A stretch of DNA of 38,078 bases from a virus (Duplodnaviria; Heunggongvirae; Uroviricota; Caudoviricetes): IMG/VR virus record IMGVR_UViG_2561511241_000002. The stretch is one strand, 5' to 3'. Position numbers and translations under genes: made by a program. Below are positions 4,767 through 27,487 of the stretch, one piece after another (the first letter of the stretch is position 1; each line of letters starts with the position of its first letter). The notes below the pieces were generated by a model. It saw nothing but the letters and a program-made list of their open reading frames with translations, did not search any database and had not been told where the DNA came from.

Positions 4767-5588
4767 ATGCACCACGGAATTCATCATTTCCATGGGACGC
4801 CTGTCTGGGGAAGTGCTGGCGACGTTCATCGTATTGCGGTGAGCGGAGCTGGCGCTTTCGTCTCCTATGTACGACCAGATCAGATTGCGGCGTCCATTCA
4901 GCACGCTCAGGTCGTCGGCATTGATAACGGCGCATTTTCTGCATGGGTGCGTGGGCTAAAAATTAACTGGAGTGATTTTTATAAATGGCTCCTGAACTAT
5001 TACCACCATCCTAAGGTCGCTTTTTTTGTCATTCCTGATGTTGTAGACGGCGGTGAACGTGACAATGATGCCCTGATAAACGAAGTTCCGAAAATGTTCT
5101 ACGGGAAGGCAACTCCCGTCTGGCATCTGCACGAGTCAATCGATCGGCTTATCGAGCTATGTCGTGAATGGCCTCGTGTCTGCTTTGGATCGTCTGGTGA
5201 ATATGCGGCTATCAGAACTGCGCACTGGCATCGTCGTATGCAGGACGCTTTTGAAGCAATTTATTGCCGACACAATTTCAAAACAGCTGTTCATGGTTTG
5301 CGCATGCTTGACGGTCGTGTGTTGGGAAATTACCCACTGGCGACTGCCGACAGTACAAATCTTGCCTGCAATGTCCCCAAATTTAATAGCAAATATCCTG
5401 AGCTTACGCGGGCTATTCAGGAGGCTGAGTATTCGCGCAATCTGACGGAAAAGGAGCTGAAAGCTGTCATTCTGAAAAACCGTTGCGCAATTTTAAAAGG
5501 TGCAATTGAAGCTGTTCGCCCACCTTCAGTTTCTGATTGGCTGTCGAATGGTTTGCAGCCTTCACAGCTCGAACTGGAGATTGCGTAA
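4767..5588 (+). CDS. conserved hypothetical protein, translationally coupled to dam (alternative GTG start at 4758)
   Basis: ORF 4758..5588; start overlaps dam stop; its stop overlaps the A start (TAATG). No motif I can assign. Confidence 0.55.
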
Positions 5589-7960
5589 TGAACTACAGCT
5601 ATTCCTGGAATGCTGAGAAAAAAGCAATCAATCCTTACGTAGGGACAGAAGAGCAATCTTCAGTTTCTGCGCTTTCAAACCTGATCGCTCTGTACGCTGC
5701 CGATAACGAGCAGGAACACCTGCGCCGCGAGGTACTGAGTGATCAGGTCTGGGAGCGTTATTTCTTTAATGAATCCCGTGATCCTGTCCAGCGCGAAATG
5801 GAGCAGGATAAGCTCATTAGTCGGGCAAAGCTGGCGCATGAGCAGCAGCGTTTTAATCCAGATATGGTCATTCTGGCGGACGTCAATGCCCAGCCTTCCC
5901 ATATCAGCAAGCCGCTGATGCAACGTATTGAATACTTCAGCAGCCTGGGCAGGCCAAAGGCTTATTCCCGCTATTTGCGTGAGACGATTAAGCCATGTCT
6001 GGAACGACTGGAGCATGTACGCGACAGTCAGCTATCCGCTTCTTTTCGCTTTATGGCAAGCCATGAAGGGCTGGATGGCCTGCTTATCCTGCCTGAAATG
6101 AGTCAGGATCAGGTGAAGCGCCTGTCTACCCTTGTCGCTGCGCATATGAGCATGTGCCTTGATGCAGCTTGTGGTGATTTGTATGCCACCGATGACGTTA
6201 AGCCAGAAGAAATCCGCAAGACATGGGAAAAGGTGGCAGCGGAAACCCTGCGTCTGGATGTTATCCCGCCTGCGTTTGAGCAACTCCGTCGGAAAAGAAA
6301 CCGCCGTAAACCCGTGCCCTATGAACTCATTCCGGGTTCGCTGGCGCGTATGTTGTGCGCCGACTGGTGGTACCGGAAATTATGGAAGATGCGTTGCGAA
6401 TGGCGGGAAGAGCAGTTGCGCGCTGTCTGCCTGGTCAGCAAAAAAGCATCTCCTTATGTCAGCTATGAAGCCGTGATGCATAAACGTGAGCAGCGCCGTA
6501 AGTCGCTGGAGTTTTTCCGTTCTCATGAACTGGTGAACGAAGACGGCGACACGCTGGACATGGAGGATGTGGTAAACGCCAGCAGCAGCAACCCTGCGCA
6601 TCGCCGCAATGAGATGATGGCCTGTGTTAAAGGTCTGGAGCTTATCGCGGAAATGCGCGGTGACTGCGCCGTTTTCTACACCATCACCTGTCCGTCACGT
6701 TTCCATTCCACGCTAAATAACGGCAGGCCCAACCCAACCTGGACAAATGCGACGGTAAGACAAAGTAGTGATTACCTGGTCGGCATGTTTGCTGCATTTC
6801 GTAAGGCGATGCACAAAGCCGGATTGCGCTGGTATGGCGTGCGGGTGGCTGAGCCGCATCATGACGGTACAGTTCACTGGCACCTGTTGTGTTTTATGCG
6901 CAAAAAAGACCGCCGCGCCATCACTGCATTACTGCGTAAGTTTGCCATCCGTGAAGACCGCGAGGAGCTGGGCAATAACACTGGGCCGCGCTTTAAGTCT
7001 GAGTTGATTAACCCGCGCAAAGGTACGCCAACAAGCTACATCGCGAAATACATCAGTAAGAACATTGACGGGCGTGGTCTGGCTGGCGAGATCAGCAAGG
7101 AAACGGGGAAATCCCTGCGTGATAATGCTGAATACGTTAATGCCTGGGCGTCTCTGCATCGTGTTCAGCAATTCCGCTTCTTTGGCATTCCGGGGCGTCA
7201 GGCTTACCGTGAACTGCGATTGCTGGCTGGTCAGGCGGCAAGGCAACAGGGGGACAAAAAAGCAGGTGCGCCGGTACTGGATAACCCGCGCCTTGATGCA
7301 ATCCTGGCTGCTGCTGATGCTGGTTGTTTTGCCACCTACATCATGAAGCAGGGCGGCGTACTGGTTCCCCGCAAATATCACCTGATCAGAACCGCTTATG
7401 AAATCAACGAAGAGCCGACCGCCTATGGCGATCACGGCATTCGTATTTATGGCATCTGGTCACCCATTGCAGAGGGCAAGATCTGCACTCATGCAGTGAA
7501 GTGGAAAATGGTTCGTAAGGCCGTTGACGTTCAGGAGGCGGCAGCCGACCAGGGCGCTTGCGCCCCTTGGACTCGTGGCAATAACTGTCCCCTTGCTGAA
7601 AATTTGTACCAACAAGGGAAAGACAAATCAGCTGATGGGGATACCAGAACGGATATCACCCGCATGGATGACAAGGAATTGCACGATTACCTGCACAGTA
7701 TGAACAAAAAAGAGCGCCGGGAACTGGCTGCAAGGTTACGCCTGGTGAAACCGAAACGGCGTAGAGACTACAAACAGCGAATTACAGATCATCAGCGACA
7801 GCAGCTCGTCTATGAACTGAAGTCCAGAGGATTTGATGGCAGCGAGAAAGAGGTCGATTTACTCCTTCGCGGTGGCAGTATTCCGTCAGGAGCAGGCCTG
7901 CGTATCTTCTATCGGAACCAGCGTTTGCAGGAAGATGATAAGTGGCGGGATCTGTATTAA
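5588..7960 (+). CDS. A: replication initiation endonuclease (P2 gpA family, rolling-circle)
   Basis: 790 aa; HUH-like motif VHWHLLCF and paired active-site tyrosines in [10 protein letters not shown] as in P2 A. Confidence 0.9.
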
Positions 7961-8052
7961 TTACGCGGGTTAACAATTCGTGCTCTTAATAATACCAGGC
8001 ATACCAGGCTGATGAACGTAAAAAAACGTTTTACATCAGTAAGATTATTATA

Positions 8053-8087
8053 TACTGTAAATATAAACAGTGGTTATGTATACAGTA
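8053..8087 (+). promoter_or_regulatory. SOS operator: tandem LexA boxes overlapping the promoter of the DinI-like operon
   Basis: Box 1 TACTGTAAATATAAACAGTG (perfect CTGT-N8-ACAG) at 8053-8072; overlapping weaker box CAGTGGTTATGTATACAGTA at 8068-8087; TTTACA/TATACT promoter-like hexamers just upstream. Confidence 0.65.
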
Positions 8088-8112
8088 TTGCTTTGGTGTC
8101 ATAGGAGGAAAG

Positions 8113-8301
8113 ATGCAGGACTATTTTTTGGAGTCTTTGAAGCTCCAGCGCATTGATTTTTTTCTTAAGCTTGTAGCGGCTAGTGAGTGTAGTGATGAAG
8201 AGAAGGGGCTGGCCCTGCAGTGGGTTTCTGAACTGACAGATGAACTCATGGCAAAAATCAGAACCCATGAATACAACCGCTCAATGGATGTCATCAGCTG
8301 A
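8113..8301 (+). CDS. hypothetical protein (62 aa), first gene of SOS-regulated operon
   Basis: ATG 8113 preceded by AGGAGGA; may correspond to the N-terminal part of a 186 Tum-like antirepressor, here as a separate ORF. Confidence 0.5.
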   Translation: MQDYFLESLKLQRIDFFLKLVAASECSDEEKGLALQWVSELTDELMAKIRTHEYNRSMDVIS

Positions 8302-8311
8302 GGTGACTTTT

Positions 8312-8545
8312 ATGCGCATTGAAATAATGATCGATAAAGAGCAGAAGATTAGCCAGTCTACACTGGACGCCCTTGAATCCGAGCTTTACCGCAATCTGCG
8401 CCCCCTGTATCCCAAAACGGTAATTCGTATCCGCAAAGGTAGCTCTAACGGTGTGGAACTGACCGGACTGCAACTGGACGAAGAAAGAAAACAAGTGATG
8501 AAAATTATGCAGAAGGTCTGGGAGGACGACAGCTGGTTACACTAG
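8312..8545 (+). CDS. DinI-family protein (77 aa)
   Basis: MRIEIMIDK...DALESEL...VWEDDSWLH parallels E. coli DinI (MRIEVTIAK...WESADDW); ATG 8312 with GAGGTG SD. Confidence 0.8.
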   Translation: MRIEIMIDKEQKISQSTLDALESELYRNLRPLYPKTVIRIRKGSSNGVELTGLQLDEERKQVMKIMQKVWEDDSWLH

Positions 8546-8551
8546 CGAACG

Positions 8552-8586
8552 TTGCGGACGATAAAACTGGTTTTTATCGTCCGCAA
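8552..8586. terminator. perfect 15-bp-arm palindrome (hairpin) after the DinI-like gene
   Basis: TTGCGGACGATAAAA-ctggt-TTTTATCGTCCGCAA; no clean U-tract, so terminator versus protein-binding site is unresolved. Confidence 0.4.
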
Positions 8587-9000
8587 GGTTGAACAACGAG
8601 CCGCGTGAGGCGTTAGAAACGGGTAGTGAAAAGTGATTTAAGAATGCCTTGTTCCCCTGAAACTTTGGCCTATGCAACAACATTCGACAGCTTTCTTGAT
8701 TATCATAAGTAACTTGAAGTTTAGGGACGATTCTGATGGTATACGTGAAAAATGTATCGTGTGTTGCTTTGGCAAAAAGGAGTTTTAGTGGACAACGGCT
8801 CAATCACCTTCTTTGATATTACTGCTTGTGGGTTTTATCGTTTAAAGAATAAACCCGAAGAGCTTGATTATAAATTCGGCGATCTTATGGGGGTTTTGGA
8901 CGATTTAGAAGGGTGACTCAAGGATAAAAATTTTGAGCAGACTCTCCCATGGAATAAAGAAGAACAACCTCTGCGAACACGAGTTTACAGTCGAGGCCTT

Positions 9001-9951
9001 GTGAGGGACAGCCAGACTAAAGATGCAGTAATTGTTTTATACCGTGAAGTGGGGAACGGTAACGGAATACATGGTATTAAGGTCGGTTCTAAAGTAAGTG
9101 GTGATAGTAAAGGAACCATTAGGGCGGGAAGAGAACATGGTGAGGATAAAATAATTTGGGGTGAACCCTGCTATTACTGGATTATTCCTGAGTTGAATAA
9201 AATAGCATCAATCAGATTCCCCCATTCTTTCGCTGATACTTATCTCTTCGCACAATACTTCATTCAGCATGTAAATAATAATAGTAAGTTAGGTAAAAGA
9301 ACGAAATCTAAGCGTACATTTGAATCAGCTAAGACCCCTGGTCGTTGTGTGGATGTCTACAATACTAAGTTTCAATATAAAGATGGCAAAAATGAGATAA
9401 ACTGTATCTTCAAGTTTGTATTGGAAGAAACAAAACTTAAAGCCGCTGAGGAAAACTTTGAAAGGTTAAGGCATAAAATTACACACACATTGATAAAGGA
9501 TACAACGGTAATAAACCAAAATGACACAAGGCAACCATTGTTGAAGCTAACAAGTGTAGCTTTAGCATCTCTGGTGGGTGAAGAAAAGCGTAATAAGCTT
9601 ATTGGGGCACCTCCTGTTTTGGAGCAGCCTCGTAAAATTGAAGTTAAAATTGACGGTGCACCATCATCGGATGAGCTTCGAAATCTCTTCTCAATGAGAG
9701 GTGAAGAGTCTGAATGGGATGTGGGTTTTTTACTGGCTGATCGTGCTAATCCGGTTTGGCTCAGTAGCTATGTAGCCAGGACTAAACTTCCTCTTCAAGA
9801 TTCGGATGGGTTTGAGCATTATTCAGCGCGTTTTTTACTGGATGAAATAAACAAAATTCGTGATGATTTGATTAGTGAAGTAAAATATGCTGAGGAAGCA
9901 TCCATTAAAGAATCTGAAGCTGCATCCACAAAAAAGATAGCGGAAGGTTGA
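9001..9951 (+). CDS. uncharacterised cargo protein (316 aa from GTG 9001), first gene of two-gene operon; frame stays open upstream to 8752/8788 apart from one in-frame TGA at 8914
   Basis: AT-rich ORF; stop overlaps the next gene start (TGATATG). Upstream in-frame segment carries a strong SD (AAGGAG, 5 nt before GTG 8788). Candidate Rx4-6H element in ERLRHKITH (weak). Confidence 0.6.
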   Translation: MRDSQTKDAVIVLYREVGNGNGIHGIKVGSKVSGDSKGTIRAGREHGEDKIIWGEPCYYWIIPELNKIASIRFPHSFADTYLFAQYFIQHVNNNSKLGKRTKSKRTFESAKTPGRCVDVYNTKFQYKDGKNEINCIFKFVLEETKLKAAEENFERLRHKITHTLIKDTTVINQNDTRQPLLKLTSVALASLVGEEKRNKLIGAPPVLEQPRKIEVKIDGAPSSDELRNLFSMRGEESEWDVGFLLADRANPVWLSSYVARTKLPLQDSDGFEHYSARFLLDEINKIRDDLISEVKYAEEASIKESEAASTKKIAEG

Positions 9952-9952
9952 T

Positions 9953-10489
9953 ATGACAGAAACGGAAGGTTTGATAATAACAGTTGCAAAACAGCAGGCG
10001 ATTAATTTTGTTGCTGTTGTTTTGTGCTGCGTTATAAGCTATTTTTCGTTCAAAAGTTTTTCCTATAATGATGCAAAAGATATTTTAGGTGCGCTTATAA
10101 ATATTTCAGCATCTATATTCACTATTGTCGGTTTATGGGTCGGTTTTTTATATCCGAATGCAATGAATAGTATTGTTAAGGATGATGTAAGTTATATAAA
10201 AAATGAGCATGACTCACCAAGAATAGAGAAATTAGTTTATACAATAATCACATCTGCTTGTGTTATGGCTGGGATTCTAATTTTCTTTTTGGTTAAGGCA
10301 GTGTTTTATGCATTACCTGTTTATCAAGCTAATAAAGACTTGTTTAAATACATTGGTATTTTCTTCATTTACTTTATTAGCTGGATGCAATTAAAATGCG
10401 TTATGAGCCTGATTTTGAGTAATTTACATTTTGTTAATCACTTACATGGACGTTTAGCAAAAGCGAAATTAGAACACTATGATGAATAA
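9953..10489 (+). CDS. small integral membrane protein with four predicted TM helices (178 aa)
   Basis: Four hydrophobic segments (INFVAVVLCCVISYFSF, ILGALINISASIFTIVGLWVGFLY, LVYTIITSACVMAGILIFFLV, YIGIFFIYFISWMQL); translationally coupled to the upstream gene. Confidence 0.7.
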   Translation: MTETEGLIITVAKQQAINFVAVVLCCVISYFSFKSFSYNDAKDILGALINISASIFTIVGLWVGFLYPNAMNSIVKDDVSYIKNEHDSPRIEKLVYTIITSACVMAGILIFFLVKAVFYALPVYQANKDLFKYIGIFFIYFISWMQLKCVMSLILSNLHFVNHLHGRLAKAKLEHYDE

Positions 10490-10633
10490 AGTGTTCGTAT
10501 TGGCAGGAGTTACTGTGGATGTTTAACCTCAACAAGAGTAAGCCTCCTTTAACATGGGAATCACCGTTCTAACAAGCTTTGCATGTCTATGCTGCATGAA
10601 TCCGCATGATCGTTTTAGGATCGTTTTTGCTGA

Positions 10634-10658
10634 GGCCCGCCAGAACTGGCGGGCTTTT
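10634..10658. terminator. GC-rich hairpin with flanking T/A runs (bidirectional intrinsic terminator)
   Basis: GGCCCGCCAG-aa-CTGGCGGGC followed by TTTT; T-run also on the other side. Confidence 0.55.
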
Positions 10659-10702
10659 GCTTATGTCATGCACCTGCATGAAAACCACTACATAAAGCGG
10701 GC

Positions 10703-10721
10703 AGGCGTGGCGGGGATACGA
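10703..10721. other. candidate cos cohesive-end core (P2/186-like)
   Basis: GGCGTGGCGGGGATACGAG: first 13 nt identical to the 186 cohesive end as I recall it (GGCGTGGCGGGGAAAGCAT), 15/19 overall; sits in a GC-richer non-coding stretch between two AT-rich cargo blocks. Confidence 0.3.
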
Positions 10722-10856
10722 GCGCGCTCTGATATGAAAATCTGAACAAAAAATTACAAAATGGTATCTTTTTGTTGCTATCATCATTTTTGATGGTAAC
10801 TTAACCTTTTCAGTTTCTATATTATAAAATTCTATCCAGAAGAAGGAATTTGTTTC

Positions 10857-12638
10857 ATGGCTGAACTATTACCGCAAACAACTTCTATACAAACTATTTA
10901 TTCATGGTTTACTGAAGGTAAGATATTTGTTAATAGACGTTATCAACGAAAATTAGTTTGGACTGCAATAGAGAAACAAAAATTAATTGAATCCATTCAA
11001 AAAAAATATCCAATTCCTGCAGTTCTTCTCGCGGAAAGGGAAAATGATCCTGGCACATATGAAATAATTGATGGCCTACAAAGATTACATGCAATAATGT
11101 CTTTCATCGAAACAGGATATGAATCACTTGATGGAAAACGTTTTAATCTGGACGCTTTTCCCACAGCGAAAAATCGAGCGGATGAAGGTAAGTTTGTTGC
11201 AGTGAAAGCTGATAATCTTTTAAGTCAGCGTGAGGTTACTCAGTTATTGGATTATTCTCTTGCAATGTCCATTATGCGTAATGCGACTGAGAACGAAATA
11301 AATGATGTTTTTGATAGAATTAATACATACGGGCATAGACTTAGTGATCAAGAAAGGCGCCAGGCTGGTATACAAAATAAATTTTCAAATATGGTTAGGG
11401 ATATTGCCTGTTCTATCAGGGGGGATGTATCTGACGACATATTGCTTTTAGAGCAAATGCCGTCTATTAGCATTGATTTGCCACTAACTAAACATGGTTA
11501 CCAAATTCAGTCGGAAGAAGTATTTTGGGTAAAACATGGGATCTTACGTTCAACAGACCTTCGTGACAGTATGGATGAGCAATGCATTGCAGATATAGCA
11601 GCTTGTATTGTTGGAGGTAAGTTAATAGATCGTTCCAAAGATGCGCTTGATCAGATTTATAATAATGAAGATGAAGAGTATAGTCGTATTAGCTCTGCTA
11701 TTAATGTTTATGGTGAAGGAAAATTTGCAGAAGAGTTTAAATTCTGCATCCAGGAAATAACAAAAGTATGTAATAGTGACGGTGAAATTAAACTCAGGGA
11801 TTTAATCTTTACTAAACGTACTACAAATGCTTTCCCAGCCATATTTGCTGTGTTATTTATTGCTTTTCATGAATTACTCATTAAAGAAAATAAGAAGATT
11901 AATAATTATAAAGGTGTAAAAGACAATCTTAATAATATAGTCACTCGACTAGATACTAAAAGATCTGCTACTGGTGGGGAAGAGAGAAGAAAGAATATTA
12001 ATTCTATCATAGGCTTGATTAAAGATAACTTTATTGATAGCGCCGATAGCAGTCATATCTATAATTCTCACAATACGGTGGATATTGAGGATATTTTACG
12101 AAGATCTGAAATAGAGCTTGCAAATTATGAACTGAAACAGGGTTTGTTGATGTTAGGCGGAGAGCGAACTATTGATGATGGCATTCATGAGAAAATATTC
12201 TCCACAATTTGTGCTATTGCTAACATCGGTAAAGGTAACAAGAACGGTGTAGTTGGTAAGTTATTGCTTGGTGTAACAGATAAACCAAGTGATACAAGTA
12301 GAGTAAAAGAGCTTGATGATATAGATGCACATGTAGTTGGTGAGAGAAGTGTTGTTGGTGTTAAAAGAGAAGCTATTAAACTCGGCATATCAATGGAAGA
12401 ATATTATAGACGTTTTTGCGATGAGTTGAAAAAATCTGCTTTGAGTGAGCCTCTTAAATCACAAGTGGTGAGTTTGATTGACTATAATGACTTTTATGGT
12501 TATGGAGTTATAGTTATTACAATTCCACTTCTAGCATCTTATTCTAGTTATGATGGGGATATTTATTATCGTGCTGGCGATAATACCGTAAAAGCAACAG
12601 TTATCGAAGCAGCAGATATTGCAACACGTTTTAAATGA
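10857..12638 (+). CDS. DUF262 (ParB/GmrS-like N-terminal domain) protein, 593 aa, C-terminal region unassigned
   Basis: N-terminal RRYQRKLVWTAIEKQKLIESI and EIIDGLQRLHAI match the DUF262 signature (FQR..vW...Q..LIdS; IIDGQQR); no H-x-x-P His-Me finger (DUF1524) motif seen in the C-terminal half. Very AT-rich. Confidence 0.8.
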   Translation: MAELLPQTTSIQTIYSWFTEGKIFVNRRYQRKLVWTAIEKQKLIESIQKKYPIPAVLLAERENDPGTYEIIDGLQRLHAIMSFIETGYESLDGKRFNLDAFPTAKNRADEGKFVAVKADNLLSQREVTQLLDYSLAMSIMRNATENEINDVFDRINTYGHRLSDQERRQAGIQNKFSNMVRDIACSIRGDVSDDILLLEQMPSISIDLPLTKHGYQIQSEEVFWVKHGILRSTDLRDSMDEQCIADIAACIVGGKLIDRSKDALDQIYNNEDEEYSRISSAINVYGEGKFAEEFKFCIQEITKVCNSDGEIKLRDLIFTKRTTNAFPAIFAVLFIAFHELLIKENKKINNYKGVKDNLNNIVTRLDTKRSATGGEERRKNINSIIGLIKDNFIDSADSSHIYNSHNTVDIEDILRRSEIELANYELKQGLLMLGGERTIDDGIHEKIFSTICAIANIGKGNKNGVVGKLLLGVTDKPSDTSRVKELDDIDAHVVGERSVVGVKREAIKLGISMEEYYRRFCDELKKSALSEPLKSQVVSLIDYNDFYGYGVIVITIPLLASYSSYDGDIYYRAGDNTVKATVIEAADIATRFK

Positions 12639-12678: not shown

Positions 12679-13704
12679 CTACAAAATATATTTATTAAAT
12701 GTAATTATATTTTCATCTAGCCAACAATTAAGCGCTTGCATCAATTTTTGCAAAGGTAAAAGCTCATTCCGCACAAATACCTTACTAGCTTTCTCTACAT
12801 CCCCAAACCCCCCGACATTGCTAGGCATAATCCCCATCATTTGCGGCGGTACGCGATGTGCTGCCATCATGTCATCGCGGCTGACATTTTTGATATTCAG
12901 AAACTCATCCTTCGCCGCGACTTCTGACAGAGGAATGATCTGAAGCCCATCCTTTTTGCCGTTAGGCGAGTACATAAACAGGTTGCGGAAGTTACCCGGT
13001 CCTTTGGCGCTTTTCATTGCGTTGCGGAGGTTGTTCACATCCTCCTGGTTTTGCGCGGCATCGGTCATGTACATGATGAAGCCTGCATGACTGCCGTTAA
13101 TGTAATACTTCCGGCGGAACAGCGTGGCGGACTCGTTGAGCAGAGCGGATGGAATAGCAGAAAGATAGCCAGGCAGGCCGTAGATCTCCTGATTAATATC
13201 CGGTTCCATCAGATGAAAGATGCTGCCTTTCGTGAACTGATACGGCTGGGTTGCCATACCGTATTGCACAAACCAGTAGGTATCCAGGTCTAATCCGCGT
13301 CGAGTGTATTTTGCCAGGGCAGGTTCAAGGGCGATAACTTCACCGAAGCGGTTCGTGCGTTTCTCCAGGTAGGCATTACCAAATACCAGATAGTCCTGCA
13401 CAAAACGTGAAAAAGCCTGCTGGCTGAGCAACGGGTGAGGGATATAGGTGCTGGTCAGAATGTTGCACTTTACTGCAATCGGTGAGCTGTGGTGTACGGC
13501 GGCGCGGAAGGTTCGCGCCAGGCCGTCGAAACTCACTGGTGGCTCATACCAACGGTCCATCTGTACGCATTCCACATAGTCCAGCAGTTCGCGGCGGTCC
13601 AGAACAGGAACGGGATCACCGAAGCTGAATGCTTCGGCTGAAGTCTGGTTTTTATGCTGGATCTGTTTCGTCGCCGCAGCGCGGTTCTTCTTACTCTTTC
13701 CCAT
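12679..13704 (-). CDS. Q: portal protein (P2 gpQ)
   Basis: 341 aa; start ATG overlaps P stop (TGATG); synteny Q-P divergent from O-N-M. Confidence 0.9.
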   Translation of the reverse strand: MGKSKKNRAAATKQIQHKNQTSAEAFSFGDPVPVLDRRELLDYVECVQMDRWYEPPVSFDGLARTFRAAVHHSSPIAVKCNILTSTYIPHPLLSQQAFSRFVQDYLVFGNAYLEKRTNRFGEVIALEPALAKYTRRGLDLDTYWFVQYGMATQPYQFTKGSIFHLMEPDINQEIYGLPGYLSAIPSALLNESATLFRRKYYINGSHAGFIMYMTDAAQNQEDVNNLRNAMKSAKGPGNFRNLFMYSPNGKKDGLQIIPLSEVAAKDEFLNIKNVSRDDMMAAHRVPPQMMGIMPSNVGGFGDVEKASKVFVRNELLPLQKLMQALNCWLDENIITFNKYIL

Positions 13705-15470
13705 CAAAAAATCTCCACAATATTGCTGGTATTGGCGGACTCGCCCTGCAGTGGTTCGTTAAACAGTGCGTGCATTGTTGCCCAGGCCAGATCGGCATGG
13801 CTGGCTTCTTCGCTGCGGCTGGCTTCATAGGTCGGGCGGTTGCCGCTGGCGGTGGTGGCGCGACGGATTGCCATGAATGACTGCGCAATGTCGGTGTGCC
13901 CGGCGTCAAACTCAAGACGGCGGTGGCTGATAATGTCGTAGGCCTTGAGTACCAGGGCGTTTTTAACGTTGGGGTTGTAGACAAACTCCCGGACGGCAGG
14001 AAAAAACGCTTTCACGTTCTCGTAAACCCCGTGACCAACGCCGGTTGAGTCGATGCCGATATAGGTCACGTTGTACTGTTCGGTCAGTTTTTTGATGGCG
14101 TCAGCCTGGGCGCGAAAGTCCATTCCGCGCCACTGGTGACGCTCAAGAATGCGGAACTTACCGCCTGGCACGGCTGGCGGTGCCACCACCACGCATCCGG
14201 CGCTGTCGCCGTTCTGCGTACCTTTTGCCGGGTCATAACCGATCCACACTTCGCGCCAGCCAAACGGGCGCAGGGCCAGTGCATGAAAGTCGGTCCAGAC
14301 TTCCCAGCTGTCCACCATGCACGCCTGCAATTCGCTGAGCGGGAACACGGACGCGAGATCGTCCACGAACTCGCACATCAGCAAGTTCTGGTATTCGTCA
14401 GGGCTGTACTCCATGCGCAACTGGTCAAGGTCGAACAGGTTACAGCCGCCGCGCACCGCATCTTCCACGGTGACTATCTGGCGGTATTGCCCGTCTGCGC
14501 ACAGCAGGCCGGGGGCCAGATTGCTGTGGGACAGGTCGATGTCCACCTTATCGGCTCTGTTGCGCCCACGGTTGAACAGCGCACCGGACCAGAACGGATA
14601 AGCACTGTGTGTCAGACTGGATGGCGTGGAAAAATAGGTCTGTCGCCATTTCTTGTGAATAGCCATACCGGAAGCCACTTTGCGCAGCTCCTGGAATTTC
14701 GGTATCCAGAAATATTCATCCAGATACAGGTTGCCGTGGTAACTCTGGGCCGTGCGGGCATTGGTGCCGAGGAAGTACAGCGTGGCCCCGTTAGGAAGCA
14801 CCATCGGATCGCCTTTCAGCTCCACCTCCACTTCTTTGGCGAAGTCGATGATGTACTGCTTAAAGACGTGGGCTTGTGCCTTACTGGCGGAAAGGAAAAT
14901 CTGGTTACGCCCGGTTAGCAGAGCGTCAATCAGGGCTTCACGGGCAAAATAGAAGGTCGCGCCGATCTGGCGTGACTTCAGCAGGTTGCGGATGCGGTTG
15001 GTTTTTCCGGCTTCCCACCAGTGGCGCTGGTAGTTGAACATGGAGGAATGGAAGATTTCTTCCAGCTTCTCAATCTGTTCATCGGTGAAAACGTTCTTTT
15101 CCGGCTGACGGCGCGGGCCTTTGTTGCGGTTGGCGACGTTAGGGTTTAAGTCGGCTTCGTTGCCGCCATTGTTAAACTTGCCGATCCGCGCATGGCGCTC
15201 CGACTGGCGCGCCAGCAGGTCAATCTCTTTGAAATCTTTCCCTTCTTTGTGCTCCTTCATAATGAGCTGGCAGTAGCGTGCGGCGGTGGTGAGCTGCATC
15301 TGATCCAGCGGCCCATAGTCACCCCACTTGTCGCGTTTTTTCCAGCTGTGAACGGTTGCAACTTTCTCGCCCAGCATTTCAGCAATGCGGGCTACGCGGT
15401 ATCCCTGAAAGTACAGCAGCATGGCCTGCCGACGGGGATCGAGATCTGCGGGTGTCAGTGTGGTGTTCAT
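13704..15470 (-). CDS. P: terminase large subunit (P2 gpP)
   Basis: 588 aa, length and position as P2 P. Confidence 0.9.
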   Translation of the reverse strand: MNTTLTPADLDPRRQAMLLYFQGYRVARIAEMLGEKVATVHSWKKRDKWGDYGPLDQMQLTTAARYCQLIMKEHKEGKDFKEIDLLARQSERHARIGKFNNGGNEADLNPNVANRNKGPRRQPEKNVFTDEQIEKLEEIFHSSMFNYQRHWWEAGKTNRIRNLLKSRQIGATFYFAREALIDALLTGRNQIFLSASKAQAHVFKQYIIDFAKEVEVELKGDPMVLPNGATLYFLGTNARTAQSYHGNLYLDEYFWIPKFQELRKVASGMAIHKKWRQTYFSTPSSLTHSAYPFWSGALFNRGRNRADKVDIDLSHSNLAPGLLCADGQYRQIVTVEDAVRGGCNLFDLDQLRMEYSPDEYQNLLMCEFVDDLASVFPLSELQACMVDSWEVWTDFHALALRPFGWREVWIGYDPAKGTQNGDSAGCVVVAPPAVPGGKFRILERHQWRGMDFRAQADAIKKLTEQYNVTYIGIDSTGVGHGVYENVKAFFPAVREFVYNPNVKNALVLKAYDIISHRRLEFDAGHTDIAQSFMAIRRATTASGNRPTYEASRSEEASHADLAWATMHALFNEPLQGESANTSNIVEIF

Positions 15471-23916: not shown

Positions 23917-25442
23917 GCACAAAATTTTATACCCTGCTGACGGATATTGGCGCGGCGAAACTTGCCAGCGCCGCCGCGCTCGGTGTGCCGCTAAAAATTA
24001 CCCATATGGCGGTGGGCGATGGCGGCGGAGCATTGCCGACGCCGGACGCAAAGCAGACTGCACTGGTAAATGAGAAACGCCGGGCTGCGCTGAATATGCT
24101 CTATATCGACCCGCAGAACAGCAGCCAGATTATTGCTGAACAGGTGATCCCTGAAAATGAGGGTGGTTGGTGGATACGTGAAGTGGGTCTGTTTGATGAG
24201 TCCGGGGCATTGATTGCCGTAGGCAACTGCCCGGAAAGCTATAAGCCGCAACTGGCTGAAGGCAGCGGGCGCACCCAGACCGTGCGCATGGTGTTGATTA
24301 CCAGCAGCACGGACAATATCACCCTGAAAATCGACCCTGCCGTCGTGCTGGCAACCCGCAAGTATGTGGATGACAAGGTACTGGAGCTGAAGGTGTTCGT
24401 GGATGATAAGATGGCAAAACATCTTGCCGCACCGGACCCGCATTCACAGTATGCACCCAAAGAAAGCCCGACATTGACCGGAACACCCAAAGCGCCAACG
24501 CCAGCGGAGGGGAATAACACCACGCAGATTGCGACCACCGCGTTTGTTCAGGCGGCACTGATGGCCCTTATTAATGGTGCGCCAGCCACACTGGATACGC
24601 TGAAAGAAATTGCCGCTGCCATTAATAATGACCCGAAATTCAGTACCACTATTAACAATGCGCTGGCACTGAAAGCGCCGCTGTCAAGTCCGGCACTCAC
24701 CGGAACGCCAACAGCCCCCACTGCCGCACAGTCGGTTAACAATACACAGATTGCCACTACGGCTTTTGTGAAATCGGCGATTGCGGCAATGGTGGGTTCT
24801 GCACCTGCGGCACTGGATACACTGAACGAACTGGCGGCGGCGCTGGGGAATGACCCGAACTTTGCCACGACAATGCTTAATGCACTGGCAGGTAAACAAC
24901 CGCTGGACAATACGCTGACTAATTTGAGTGGAAAGGATGTAGCTGGTCTTCTCGCATACCTTGGTTTGGGAGAAGGTTCTGCATTACCTGTTGGTGTGCC
25001 TGTTCCATGGCCTTCAGCCACACCGCCAACAGGCTGGCTGAAATGCAACGGTGCGGCTTTTTCTGCTGAAGAATACCCGGAACTGGCAAAGGCTTATCCG
25101 ACAAATAAATTGCCTGATTTACGTGGTGAGTTTATTCGTGGCTGGGATGACGGGCGCGGTATTGATGCAGGACGTGTTTTATTGAGCATTCAGACAGGGA
25201 TGCTGGAAAAGCACCGTCATCCTGTTGTCGCCAACGATGGGTATGACTCAAAAGAGGTATGGGAACTGGCGGCAATCTTCAGAAGAGCATATACACAGGG
25301 CAAGGGACTGGATGGTACCAGTGCAGGCGGAACTTTGATTCCATCACCAACGCTACATACACGAGGGAGTGTCGGTAATACTGGCGGGAGTGAAACCCGT
25401 CCACGAAATATTGCATTTAACTTTATCGTGAGGGCTGCATAA
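23913..25442 (+). CDS. H: tail fibre protein H (current orientation of variable C-terminus)
   Basis: Conserved N-terminus MSTKFYTLLTDIGAAKLASAAALGVPL; C-terminal part lies inside the invertible segment. Confidence 0.85.
   Translation: MSTKFYTLLTDIGAAKLASAAALGVPLKITHMAVGDGGGALPTPDAKQTALVNEKRRAALNMLYIDPQNSSQIIAEQVIPENEGGWWIREVGLFDESGALIAVGNCPESYKPQLAEGSGRTQTVRMVLITSSTDNITLKIDPAVVLATRKYVDDKVLELKVFVDDKMAKHLAAPDPHSQYAPKESPTLTGTPKAPTPAEGNNTTQIATTAFVQAALMALINGAPATLDTLKEIAAAINNDPKFSTTINNALALKAPLSSPALTGTPTAPTAAQSVNNTQIATTAFVKSAIAAMVGSAPAALDTLNELAAALGNDPNFATTMLNALAGKQPLDNTLTNLSGKDVAGLLAYLGLGEGSALPVGVPVPWPSATPPTGWLKCNGAAFSAEEYPELAKAYPTNKLPDLRGEFIRGWDDGRGIDAGRVLLSIQTGMLEKHRHPVVANDGYDSKEVWELAAIFRRAYTQGKGLDGTSAGGTLIPSPTLHTRGSVGNTGGSETRPRNIAFNFIVRAA
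24470..24915 (+). repeat. tandem duplication (about 2 x 75 codons) inside H
   Basis: Protein repeats ...LTGTPxAPT...NNTQIATTAFV...APAxLDTLxExAAAxxNDPxF... occur twice in succession. Confidence 0.5.
24949..24974. promoter_or_regulatory. hix/gix-like 26-bp invertase crossover site inside H
   Basis: TTCTCGCATACCTTGGTTTGGGAGAA versus hixL TTCTTGAAAACCAAGGTTTTTGATAA; an inverted copy of TTGGTTTGGGAGAAG occurs at 26836-26850. Confidence 0.55.
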
Positions 25443-26044
25443 TGGATAACGCCGTATTAAATAGCGAGCTTATTGCCACGAAGGCGGGGAATATTACAGT
25501 CTATAACTATGATGGTAAAACTCGGGAATATATTTCTACTTCAAATGAATATCTTGCCATTGGTGTCGGTATCCCTGCATATTCCTGTTTAGATGCCCCT
25601 GGCACACATAAGGCTGGTTATGCAATCTGCCGTTCTGCAGATTTTAACTCATGGGAATATGTGCCAGATCATCGCGGTGAAACGGTCTATAGCACCGAAA
25701 CAGGAGAATCAAAAGAAATCACCGCTCCGGGTGATTACCCTGAAAATACAACCACTATCGCCCCATTAACGCCATACGATAAATGGGATGGTGAGAAATG
25801 GGTGACGGATACCGAGACACAGCATAGCGCCGCAGTAGATGCAGCAGAAGCACAGCGCCAGTCGCTGATTGATACTGCAATGGCTTCCATCAGTCTGATT
25901 CAACTGAAATTGCAGGCCGGACGTAAACTGACGCAGGCAGAAACAACCCGACTTAACGCTGTGCTGGATTACATTGACGCGGTGACGGCAACAGATACCA
26001 GCACCGCGCCGGATGTCATCTGGCCTGAACTGCCGGAGGCGTAG
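25442..26044 (+). CDS. G: tail fibre assembly chaperone G
   Basis: 200 aa; C-terminal DYIDAVTATDTSTAPDVIWPELP motif shared with the inverted paralogue. Confidence 0.8.
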   Translation: MDNAVLNSELIATKAGNITVYNYDGKTREYISTSNEYLAIGVGIPAYSCLDAPGTHKAGYAICRSADFNSWEYVPDHRGETVYSTETGESKEITAPGDYPENTTTIAPLTPYDKWDGEKWVTDTETQHSAAVDAAEAQRQSLIDTAMASISLIQLKLQAGRKLTQAETTRLNAVLDYIDAVTATDTSTAPDVIWPELPEA

Positions 26045-26468
26045 GCCATTCAATATCTGGCGCACCGGAAGTATCGACCAGTTCCAGTGCGTCCAGGTAA
26101 TCCAGCCACAAATTATATTGCGCCAGTTCGTCACCTTTCAGACGACCAATAGCCGCTTTACCAGGCCATTGCTTACTGTTCATGTATTCGTTGGCCTGGT
26201 TAATTAGTAGCTGTCTTTCTGATTCAGTAATTTCAATAAGCTCTTCATGCGTGGGTGGAGGAATATCTGCCCACGCAGGCAGCCCATCATCTCCGGCAAT
26301 ACGGATTTTTCCTTGTGGCGGTTCAGCCATAAACTCACTGATAATATTTTGATTTACTTCCTTAGCGTCTGATAAATCCCATCCCTCTGATTTATATTTA
26401 TCAATCATATCCACAGGGAAAAAAGCATTATGCCTTGCGCTATAAACATATTCGTTCATATAAATCAC
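26016..26468 (-). CDS. alternative tail fibre assembly chaperone (G')
   Basis: 150 aa; C-terminal LWLDYLDALELVDTSGAPDIEWPTPP paralogous to G; 3' ends of G and G' overlap convergently. Confidence 0.7.
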   Translation of the reverse strand: MIYMNEYVYSARHNAFFPVDMIDKYKSEGWDLSDAKEVNQNIISEFMAEPPQGKIRIAGDDGLPAWADIPPPTHEELIEITESERQLLINQANEYMNSKQWPGKAAIGRLKGDELAQYNLWLDYLDALELVDTSGAPDIEWPTPPAVQAR

Positions 26469-26479
26469 CCTGAATAAAA

Positions 26480-26852
26480 TTACTCACCAACAGCCCACCA
26501 ACTGTAATTCATCGATACCGTGTCGCTGGTTGATGACGTTCTGTAAGCAGAATTAAAACCGGTTAATGTTGGGCCTTCTGCGGTCATCACGAATCCCCGC
26601 CCAGCACCTAAAGGCGCACCACCATCACCAGAATGAGTAAGCATGGCGCAGTCCACTTTTTTAGGAAAAGGGATGCTGAATGTAATTCTCATTGTTTGCG
26701 TCGATAATGTCGGCGTAACCGCACCACGACCATATTGCAGGATTTTCCCGTTGGGTAATTTCATCCATCCATCACCACTGGCAAAAGAGGCCATGTCCGG
26801 TATCTGATTTTCCCCTGTCCCTACATCCCGTTTTGCCGCTTCTCCCAAACCA
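26480..26852 (-). CDS. alternative tail-fibre C-terminal cassette (H'), in frame with the hix site, would replace the current H C-terminus after inversion
   Basis: Minus-strand frame reads ...VGLGEAAKRDVGTGENQIPD... through the hix-like repeat in the same phase as H (...YLGLGEGSA...). Confidence 0.6.
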
Positions 26853-26865
26853 ACGTTTAAGAAAA
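26840..26865. promoter_or_regulatory. second hix/gix-like crossover site
   Basis: TTCTCCCAAACCAACGTTTAAGAAAA; left half is the reverse complement of GGTTTGGGAGAA found at 24963-24974. Confidence 0.5.
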
Positions 26866-26914
26866 TGCAGCGATTACGACTAACTGGCATCATCCCCGAT
26901 TTTTATTCAAGGAG

Positions 26915-27487
26915 ATGATCATGCTTATTGGCTATGTACGCGTGTCAACAAATGACCAGAACACCGATTTGCAACGTAGTGCGCTGAACTGCGCGGGATG
27001 TGAGCGGATTTTTGAGGATAAAATCAGTGGCACTAAGTCCGACAGACCGGGGCTGAAAAAACTGCTCAGGACACTATCGGCAGGAGACACGCTGGTTGTC
27101 TGGAAGCTGGACAGGTTGGGGCGCAGTATGCGGCATCTTGTTACGCTGATAGAAGAGTTGCGCCAGTGTGGCGTGAATTTCCGAAGCCTGACTGACAGTA
27201 TTGATACCAGCACCCCAATGGGCCGTTTCTTTTTTCATGTCATGGGGGCCCTGGCTGAAATGGAACGCGAACTGATAGTTGAACGTACCAGGGCGGGGCT
27301 GGCTGCAGCTCGTGCTAAAGGCAGAGTAGGTGGACGCCGTCCTAAGTTGACCACCGAACAGTGGGCACAGATTGGACGTTTACTCGAGGCCGGAGAATCA
27401 AGACAGCGTATTGCACTGATTTTTGATGTGGGTGTTTCCACAATTTATAGAAAATTTCCGGCAAATAAGAGCAATGAATCCCCCTGA
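26915..27487 (+). CDS. Hin/Gin/Pin-family serine DNA invertase
   Basis: MLIGYVRVSTNDQNTDLQR...VVWKLDRLGRSM...SPMGRFFFHVMGALAEMEREL, near-identical in pattern to e14 Pin; catalytic Ser in YVRVST. Confidence 0.9.
   Translation: MIMLIGYVRVSTNDQNTDLQRSALNCAGCERIFEDKISGTKSDRPGLKKLLRTLSAGDTLVVWKLDRLGRSMRHLVTLIEELRQCGVNFRSLTDSIDTSTPMGRFFFHVMGALAEMERELIVERTRAGLAAARAKGRVGGRRPKLTTEQWAQIGRLLEAGESRQRIALIFDVGVSTIYRKFPANKSNESP

Follow-up and report, generated by a model that had tools for sequence, protein, structure and literature searches.

A recent nonsense mutation at Trp43 probably breaks the PDC-M18A gene of a candidate defence pair in a P2-like prophage

We analysed an interrupted two-gene cassette (genes A and B) in a viral sequence of 38,078 nucleotides, the whole of which is called the window here (IMG/VR record IMGVR_UViG_2561511241_000002). 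The evidence makes it very probable that a recent G-to-A nonsense mutation, W43opal, breaks gene A and that this is an ordinary broken gene with no evolved recoding signal. A sequence-only reading of the window had described a leader ORF separated by an in-frame UGA-C from a 316-aa ORF, and it had left three options for the stop: a nonsense-inactivated gene, low-level programmed readthrough or a sequencing error. The elements that it named are all present, namely ATG 8752, GTG 8788 with AAGGAG, a single TGA followed by C (8917), a frame that is then open to 9951 (TGA 9949–9951) and GTG 9001 with GAGG (8993–8996, 4-nt spacer). Gene B starts 1 nt past the stop of gene A (Table 1). The first of the three options is the one borne out, as orthologues encode a single protein of 387 aa in which TGG (Trp) takes the place of the stop.

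Table 1. Features of gene A, gene B and the surrounding prophage region, in positions of the window
Feature	Position	Strand	Basis and remarks
Replication gene A (gpA), left edge of the cargo hotspot	5588–7960	+	Pfam Phage_GPA, E 1e-127; RefSeq annotation of L006
Shine-Dalgarno AAGGAG of gene A	8777–8782	+	Sequence; 5-nt spacer (TTTTA) to GTG
PDC-M18A gene (gene A), 387 codons + stop, opal at codon 43	8788–9951	+	RefSeq, PADLOC, PHROG
Gene A 5' fragment, 42 codons + premature TGA	8788–8916	+	AEE55528.1, 42-aa hypothetical protein
TGA, Trp43 to opal; A at 8916 in place of ancestral G	8914–8916	+	Four-locus alignment
Mechanical 316-aa ORF from GTG, the Val72 codon	9001–9951	+	Gene-called as AEE55529.1; without the first 71 residues
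PDC-M18B (gene B), 178 aa, four hydrophobic (transmembrane-like) segments	9953–10489	+	PADLOC, phrog_37654, hydropathy
Cargo gene, 593 aa, GmrSD_N/DUF262 domain, separate from A-B	10857–12638	+	Profile matches; neighbour comparison
Portal gene (gpQ), right edge of the cargo hotspot	12679–13704	-	Pfam Phage_portal; RefSeq annotation

The sequence-only reading had suggested aligning orthologous loci, and the alignment revealed a sense codon, TGG, within one uninterrupted protein. A megablast search of positions 8600–10500 against 5,426 complete E. coli genomes returned seven chromosomal matches, six of them at least 99.8% identical and one, E7476, 88.5% identical. All seven carry TGG where the window has TGA, each within a single 1164-nt CDS. 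In the RefSeq records opened (L001, L002, L003 and L006), this CDS runs from the equivalent of GTG 8788 to that of 9951, and a 537-nt CDS starts 1 nt downstream of it. When the 42 codons before the TGA were compared with the 88%-identical E7476 locus, about 11 synonymous changes and one replacement were found, and the codons that flank the TGG in E7476 likewise differ mostly at synonymous sites. The continuity across the TGA that had been proposed is therefore genuine, because the 42 upstream codons correspond by homology to an N-terminus conserved across a protein family; the expected length of roughly 388 aa needs only a small correction, the intact product being 387 aa in orthologues.

The same comparison bears on where translation begins. 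ATG 8752 is absent in E7476, GTG 9001 is GTT there, and the RefSeq annotation of 7 genomes has the gene begin at GTG 8788, which is therefore the true start of gene A. The AAGGAG is unchanged in ECCWS199, D9 and E7476, and relatives of the gene A product all begin MDNGS at the GTG. The 54-codon leader from ATG 8752 thus falls away and 42 codons are left, and what had been called a well-initiated leader ORF is merely the 5' end of the broken gene A. Nor was the proposed independent start at GTG 9001 upheld: this codon encodes Val72 and is no conserved start site within the gene. In some database entries, such as WP_205729178.1 (399 aa), the intact gene begins at ATG 8752; since E7476 lacks that ATG and relatives have MDNGS from the GTG onwards, these entries probably extend too far upstream.

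The position of the stop was then compared across the protein family. A search over 5.8 billion proteins gave 49 clusters, nearly all of 375–403 aa, from Escherichia, Klebsiella, Salmonella, Enterobacter, Yersinia, Erwinia, Serratia, Pantoea, Dickeya, Pectobacterium and other hosts. Trp43 is invariant in 35 of 35 relatives in an alignment reaching down to 30% identity, and Leu44 is nearly invariant. Of the 34 invariant and 79 nearly invariant columns of this 35-relative alignment, 6 and 22 respectively fall within residues 1–71, a conservation above average, and F9, G15 and Y17 are family-invariant residues inside the 42-codon fragment. None of the relatives is split at position 43, and no family member starts near residue 72. 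Because Trp43, Leu44 and the N-terminus are conserved and no relative is split there, the stop, to judge from the alignment, interrupts a conserved domain and does not divide a leader from a body. The C at +4 opens the conserved Leu44 codon, CTC; it follows the TGA because it was inherited from an ancestral TGG-CTC. A megablast search with the locus found nothing among 50,697 phage records, and tblastn picked up two distant homologues only (25–32% identity), one from a Providencia phage and the other from a Vibrio phage.

An AlphaFold2 model of the 96%-identical relative P0003 (mean pLDDT 81) places the truncation in structural terms. With high confidence, residues 2–18 are predicted to form a long strand pair, and residues 33–44 a helix that ends at W43.

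The age and spread of the TGA allele were assessed from near-identical prophages. From position 1 to about 24,970, the window differs from the prophage of ETEC1749, a porcine ETEC strain, by two SNPs only, at 8916 (A in the window, G in ETEC1749) and at 13904. The latter is missense and alters residue 523 of the large terminase (Ala in the window, Ser in ETEC1749). Exact-sequence look-up placed the 42-aa peptide (AEE55528.1 and others) on 56 contigs, the product of the 316-aa ORF (AEE55529.1 and others) on 120 contigs (204 index blocks) and the intact 387-aa sequence on 613 contigs. All contigs read for either truncated product lie in the same prophage neighbourhood. Seven loci, from assemblies GCA_053635095.1, GCA_023555025.1, GCA_012929245.1, GCA_001615625.1, GCA_030732705.1, GCA_012928745.1 and GCA_012929405.1, were compared with the window nucleotide for nucleotide; each shows A at 8916 and hardly differs from it elsewhere. 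The shared neighbourhood and the A at 8916 in the TGA contigs read indicate that the TGA is real and of a single origin, and the allele appears to have spread clonally in one prophage lineage. The intact sister prophages derive from porcine ETEC strains. No further mutations were found in the rest of A or in B in the seven TGA contigs; at the level of these sequences, this lack of secondary damage fits a very recent origin and equally fits selection on a leaky allele.

Profile searches identified the genes as a known candidate pair. The PADLOC profile PDC-M18A matches gene A with E 4.4e-31 over residues 3–363, and PDC-M18B matches gene B with E 2.8e-18. In PHROG, A belongs to phrog_24371 (E 6e-50) and B to phrog_37654, both function-unknown families, and the PADLOC and PHROG profiles alike cover A from residue 3. 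Pfam and NCBIfam hold no family for A or B. By these profile matches, A-B qualifies as a candidate PDC-M18 defence pair under the PADLOC criterion of both profiles in adjacent genes. The pair lies between gpA and gpQ of a 186/P2-like prophage. The third cargo gene of this hotspot varies among A-B prophages, carrying GmrSD_N/DUF262 in the window and AIPR, PIN or DUF4145 elsewhere, and therefore A-B is a self-contained cassette. No experimental validation of PDC-M18 was found in the literature searched, where the name occurs in one paper only, and a literature search by protein accessions returned no papers.

Several further observations were made in this prophage. The 593-aa gene also matches PADLOC NsnA (E 8e-31) and PD-T4-2_A (E 2e-18), which makes it a second candidate defence gene, and P2-like prophages that lack the PDC-M18 pair, in E. 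coli W and others, carry it too. An A8 tract within it (10999–11006) is A7 in GCA_001615625.1 and GCA_030732705.1 (L009 and L010), which splits the gene into 69 aa and 541 or 548 aa; this is either decay of a second cargo gene in a sublineage, slipped-strand variation or a homopolymer assembly error. A 19-nt inverted repeat (8548–8590; 95% complementary, 5-nt loop) directly follows the stop of a DinI-like gene, lacks a T-tract and is kept in E7476 with small changes, and it may be a terminator-like or hotspot boundary element. A promoter and terminator consensus scan performed no better than on shuffled sequence. All remaining differences from the ETEC1749 prophage lie at 24971–27487, in the tail-fibre C-terminal region, where about 950 nt are 90% identical. 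This stretch adjoins opposed tail-fibre/assembly cassettes and a serine recombinase (26915–27487; Resolvase, E 2e-52), a layout that characterises an invertible host-range segment captured in another state or as another allele.

On the preferred reading, W43opal in an otherwise ordinary gene, the ancestral TGG became TGA by a G-to-A transition at 8916. Ribosomes would start at GTG 8788 and mostly stop after 42 residues, and the 42-aa peptide would be the main product. Re-initiation at GTG 9001, if it occurs at all, would give a 316-aa protein without the first 71 residues; this product is most likely non-functional because it would be missing the long beta-hairpin and the helix of the predicted core. 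Polarity may in addition lower the expression of B, the start of which abuts the end of A. A small share of ribosomes would read UGA-C as Trp; Trp being the ancestral residue, what little readthrough product they made would match wild-type protein A exactly. K-12 carries a weak RF2 variant, and natural isolates likely read through less. The readthrough fraction in natural isolates would thus probably lie below the K-12 reporter level of about 2–4%. The TGA allele may be a strong hypomorph and not a null. The net effect would be that PDC-M18 function is lost or strongly reduced in the TGA lineage.

The alternative that survives best is that the stop has been selected as a leaky hypomorph, a "dimmer switch" in which readthrough gives low, cell-variable amounts of wild-type A and keeps some defence. 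We consider this improbable. The sequence-only reading was correct that UGA-C is a weak terminator, C at +4 being a documented weak context for UGA termination (PMC5289835). Reading of UGA reflects competition between Trp-tRNATrp and RF2, amounts to about 2% at 37 °C and about 4% at 25 °C in K-12 reporters and varies from cell to cell (PMC10570021). These properties, the wild-type sequence of the readthrough product, the wide distribution of the allele and the otherwise undamaged state of A and B in the contigs aligned all speak for such selection. Against it, the allele arose once, within a single near-clonal prophage lineage, a stop at this place is found in no other member of the family, and the UGA-C context was inherited from TGG-CTC and did not evolve. 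No stimulatory structure accompanies the stop: the RNA 3' of it is no more stably folded than shuffled controls (z +1.14), and an Rfam scan of 8000–11000 returned nothing relevant and no SECIS element. Furthermore, a sublineage also carries a broken copy of the neighbouring cargo gene, a sign that selection on the hotspot may have relaxed, and the abundance of the allele in databases may just mirror heavy sampling of a porcine ETEC clone. An elaborated version, in which about 1% of wild-type PDC-M18A, dependent on growth state, tunes a costly Rex-like abortive-infection module, is equally hard to credit; if the dimmer switch were true, a membrane-effector abortive-infection module would cost the cell less, or provoke less autoimmunity, without being lost. 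UGA-C in place of an ancestral Trp codon offers the best setting for functional readthrough, and some wild-type protein, perhaps a useful amount, may still be made. Any TGG codon that mutates to TGA before C becomes leaky in this way, and there is no sign of selection for it here. The stronger proposal, low-level programmed readthrough that would hold a toxic protein at small amounts, found no support, since the stop is not conserved among orthologues, being confined to one clonal prophage lineage, and no recoding structure lies downstream; the leaky context is present, but its C belongs to the conserved Leu44 codon.

It is very unlikely that the region holds two genuine genes, with a 42- to 54-codon leader peptide regulating an independently initiated 316-aa protein. 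The strong Shine-Dalgarno sequence before GTG 8788, the GAGG 4 nt before GTG 9001 and the two ORFs annotated by gene callers would suit this arrangement, but orthologues make one protein of which the "leader" is the conserved N-terminus. Neither GTG 9001 nor ATG 8752 exists in E7476, and starts near residue 72 are missing from the family. Still less likely is a sequencing or assembly error in the window record. The stop is a single-base difference from near-identical prophages, as such an error might be, but A stands at 8916 in every independent TGA-allele assembly read. This makes at least seven different GenBank assemblies, in addition to the deposited AEE55528.1 and AEE55529.1, and the change is a substitution and not a homopolymer indel. 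Decoding of the UGA as selenocysteine, to which the in-frame UGA and a weak AU-rich hairpin directly after it might point, has practically no chance of being correct, as the ancestral, family-invariant residue is Trp, the fold energy is no better than that of shuffled sequence and no SECIS or Rfam match was found.

With gene A read as a W43opal allele, the deposited 42-aa and 316-aa "hypothetical proteins" would be fragments of one broken gene, and defence-system predictors will miss or mis-score PDC-M18 in strains that carry the TGA allele. ETEC1749 (TGG) and the TGA lineage form a near-isogenic natural pair, 2 bases apart in about 25 kb, for anti-phage testing of PDC-M18.

The function of the intact pair may be approached through the Rex system. 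The predicted structure of PDC-M18A may resemble lambda RexA, and CENP-N, Chl4 and Iml3 are also named, further down, in the structural comparison of the PDC-M18A model. RexA and RdgC are reported to be structural homologues, and RexB to have four transmembrane segments (PMC11077077); hydropathy gives B four hydrophobic segments, the same number as in RexB. Like A-B, lambda RexA/RexB is a prophage-borne soluble protein followed by a small four-transmembrane protein, and a RexAB-type system of a Pseudomonas putida prophage has the same soluble plus four-transmembrane layout (PMC11077077, PMC12894663). RexA is about 100 residues shorter than A. Sequence comparison did not extend this likeness: hmmscan at E<=10 gave no match to Pfam RexA (PF15969) or RexB, hhalign of the A family with lambda RexA reached a probability of 0.1%, and with an alignment of 25 RexA sequences one of 0.4%, and BLASTP of B against RexB returned nothing. 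Foldseek found no significant match in the PDB and did not recover RexA there, and in BFVD it returned only three uncharacterised Siphoviridae proteins and no RexA; the family profile, run as an HMM against PDB sequences (E<=10), also found nothing. Membership of A in the Pfam RexA family (PF15969) was rejected for want of sequence or profile similarity. That A-B is a Rex-type exclusion module is a tentative proposal to which we give somewhat less than even chances, a structural lead and not membership. The possible resemblance of the predicted structure to lambda RexA, together with the four-transmembrane partner, provides a testable lead for uncharacterised hotspot cargo.

Among the closest known systems is the PDC-M18 pair itself. 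A-B occupies the same cos-proximal cargo hotspot of P2-like phages that was described by Rousset et al. (PMC9122126), and its intact version corresponds to the pair WP_021537009 + WP_000140689, listed as "hypothetical + hypothetical" in Table S5 of that study (PMC9122126). According to the Domainator paper, PDC-M18 is "system 4" of the P4 hotspot of Rousset et al. 2022 (PMC11754643). Unlike in the intact pair, gene A is broken here.

Recoded and ordinary stops offer the remaining comparisons. The coat/A1 protein of phage Qbeta is an example of programmed UGA readthrough, and UGA-C is used in prfB autoregulation (PMC5289835). Like gene A, both have a weak-context UGA that Trp-tRNA can decode, with in-frame coding sequence downstream. 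They differ from gene A in that its stop is not conserved, arose once and recently, and cuts a conserved domain instead of separating a core from an extension. The likeness to ordinary lineage-specific opal pseudogenes is greater: these too result from a single transition, are found in one clone and leave the rest of the gene intact. The only nuance that sets gene A apart from them is that a Trp codon became UGA-C, the leakiest case, in which readthrough would restore the wild-type residue.
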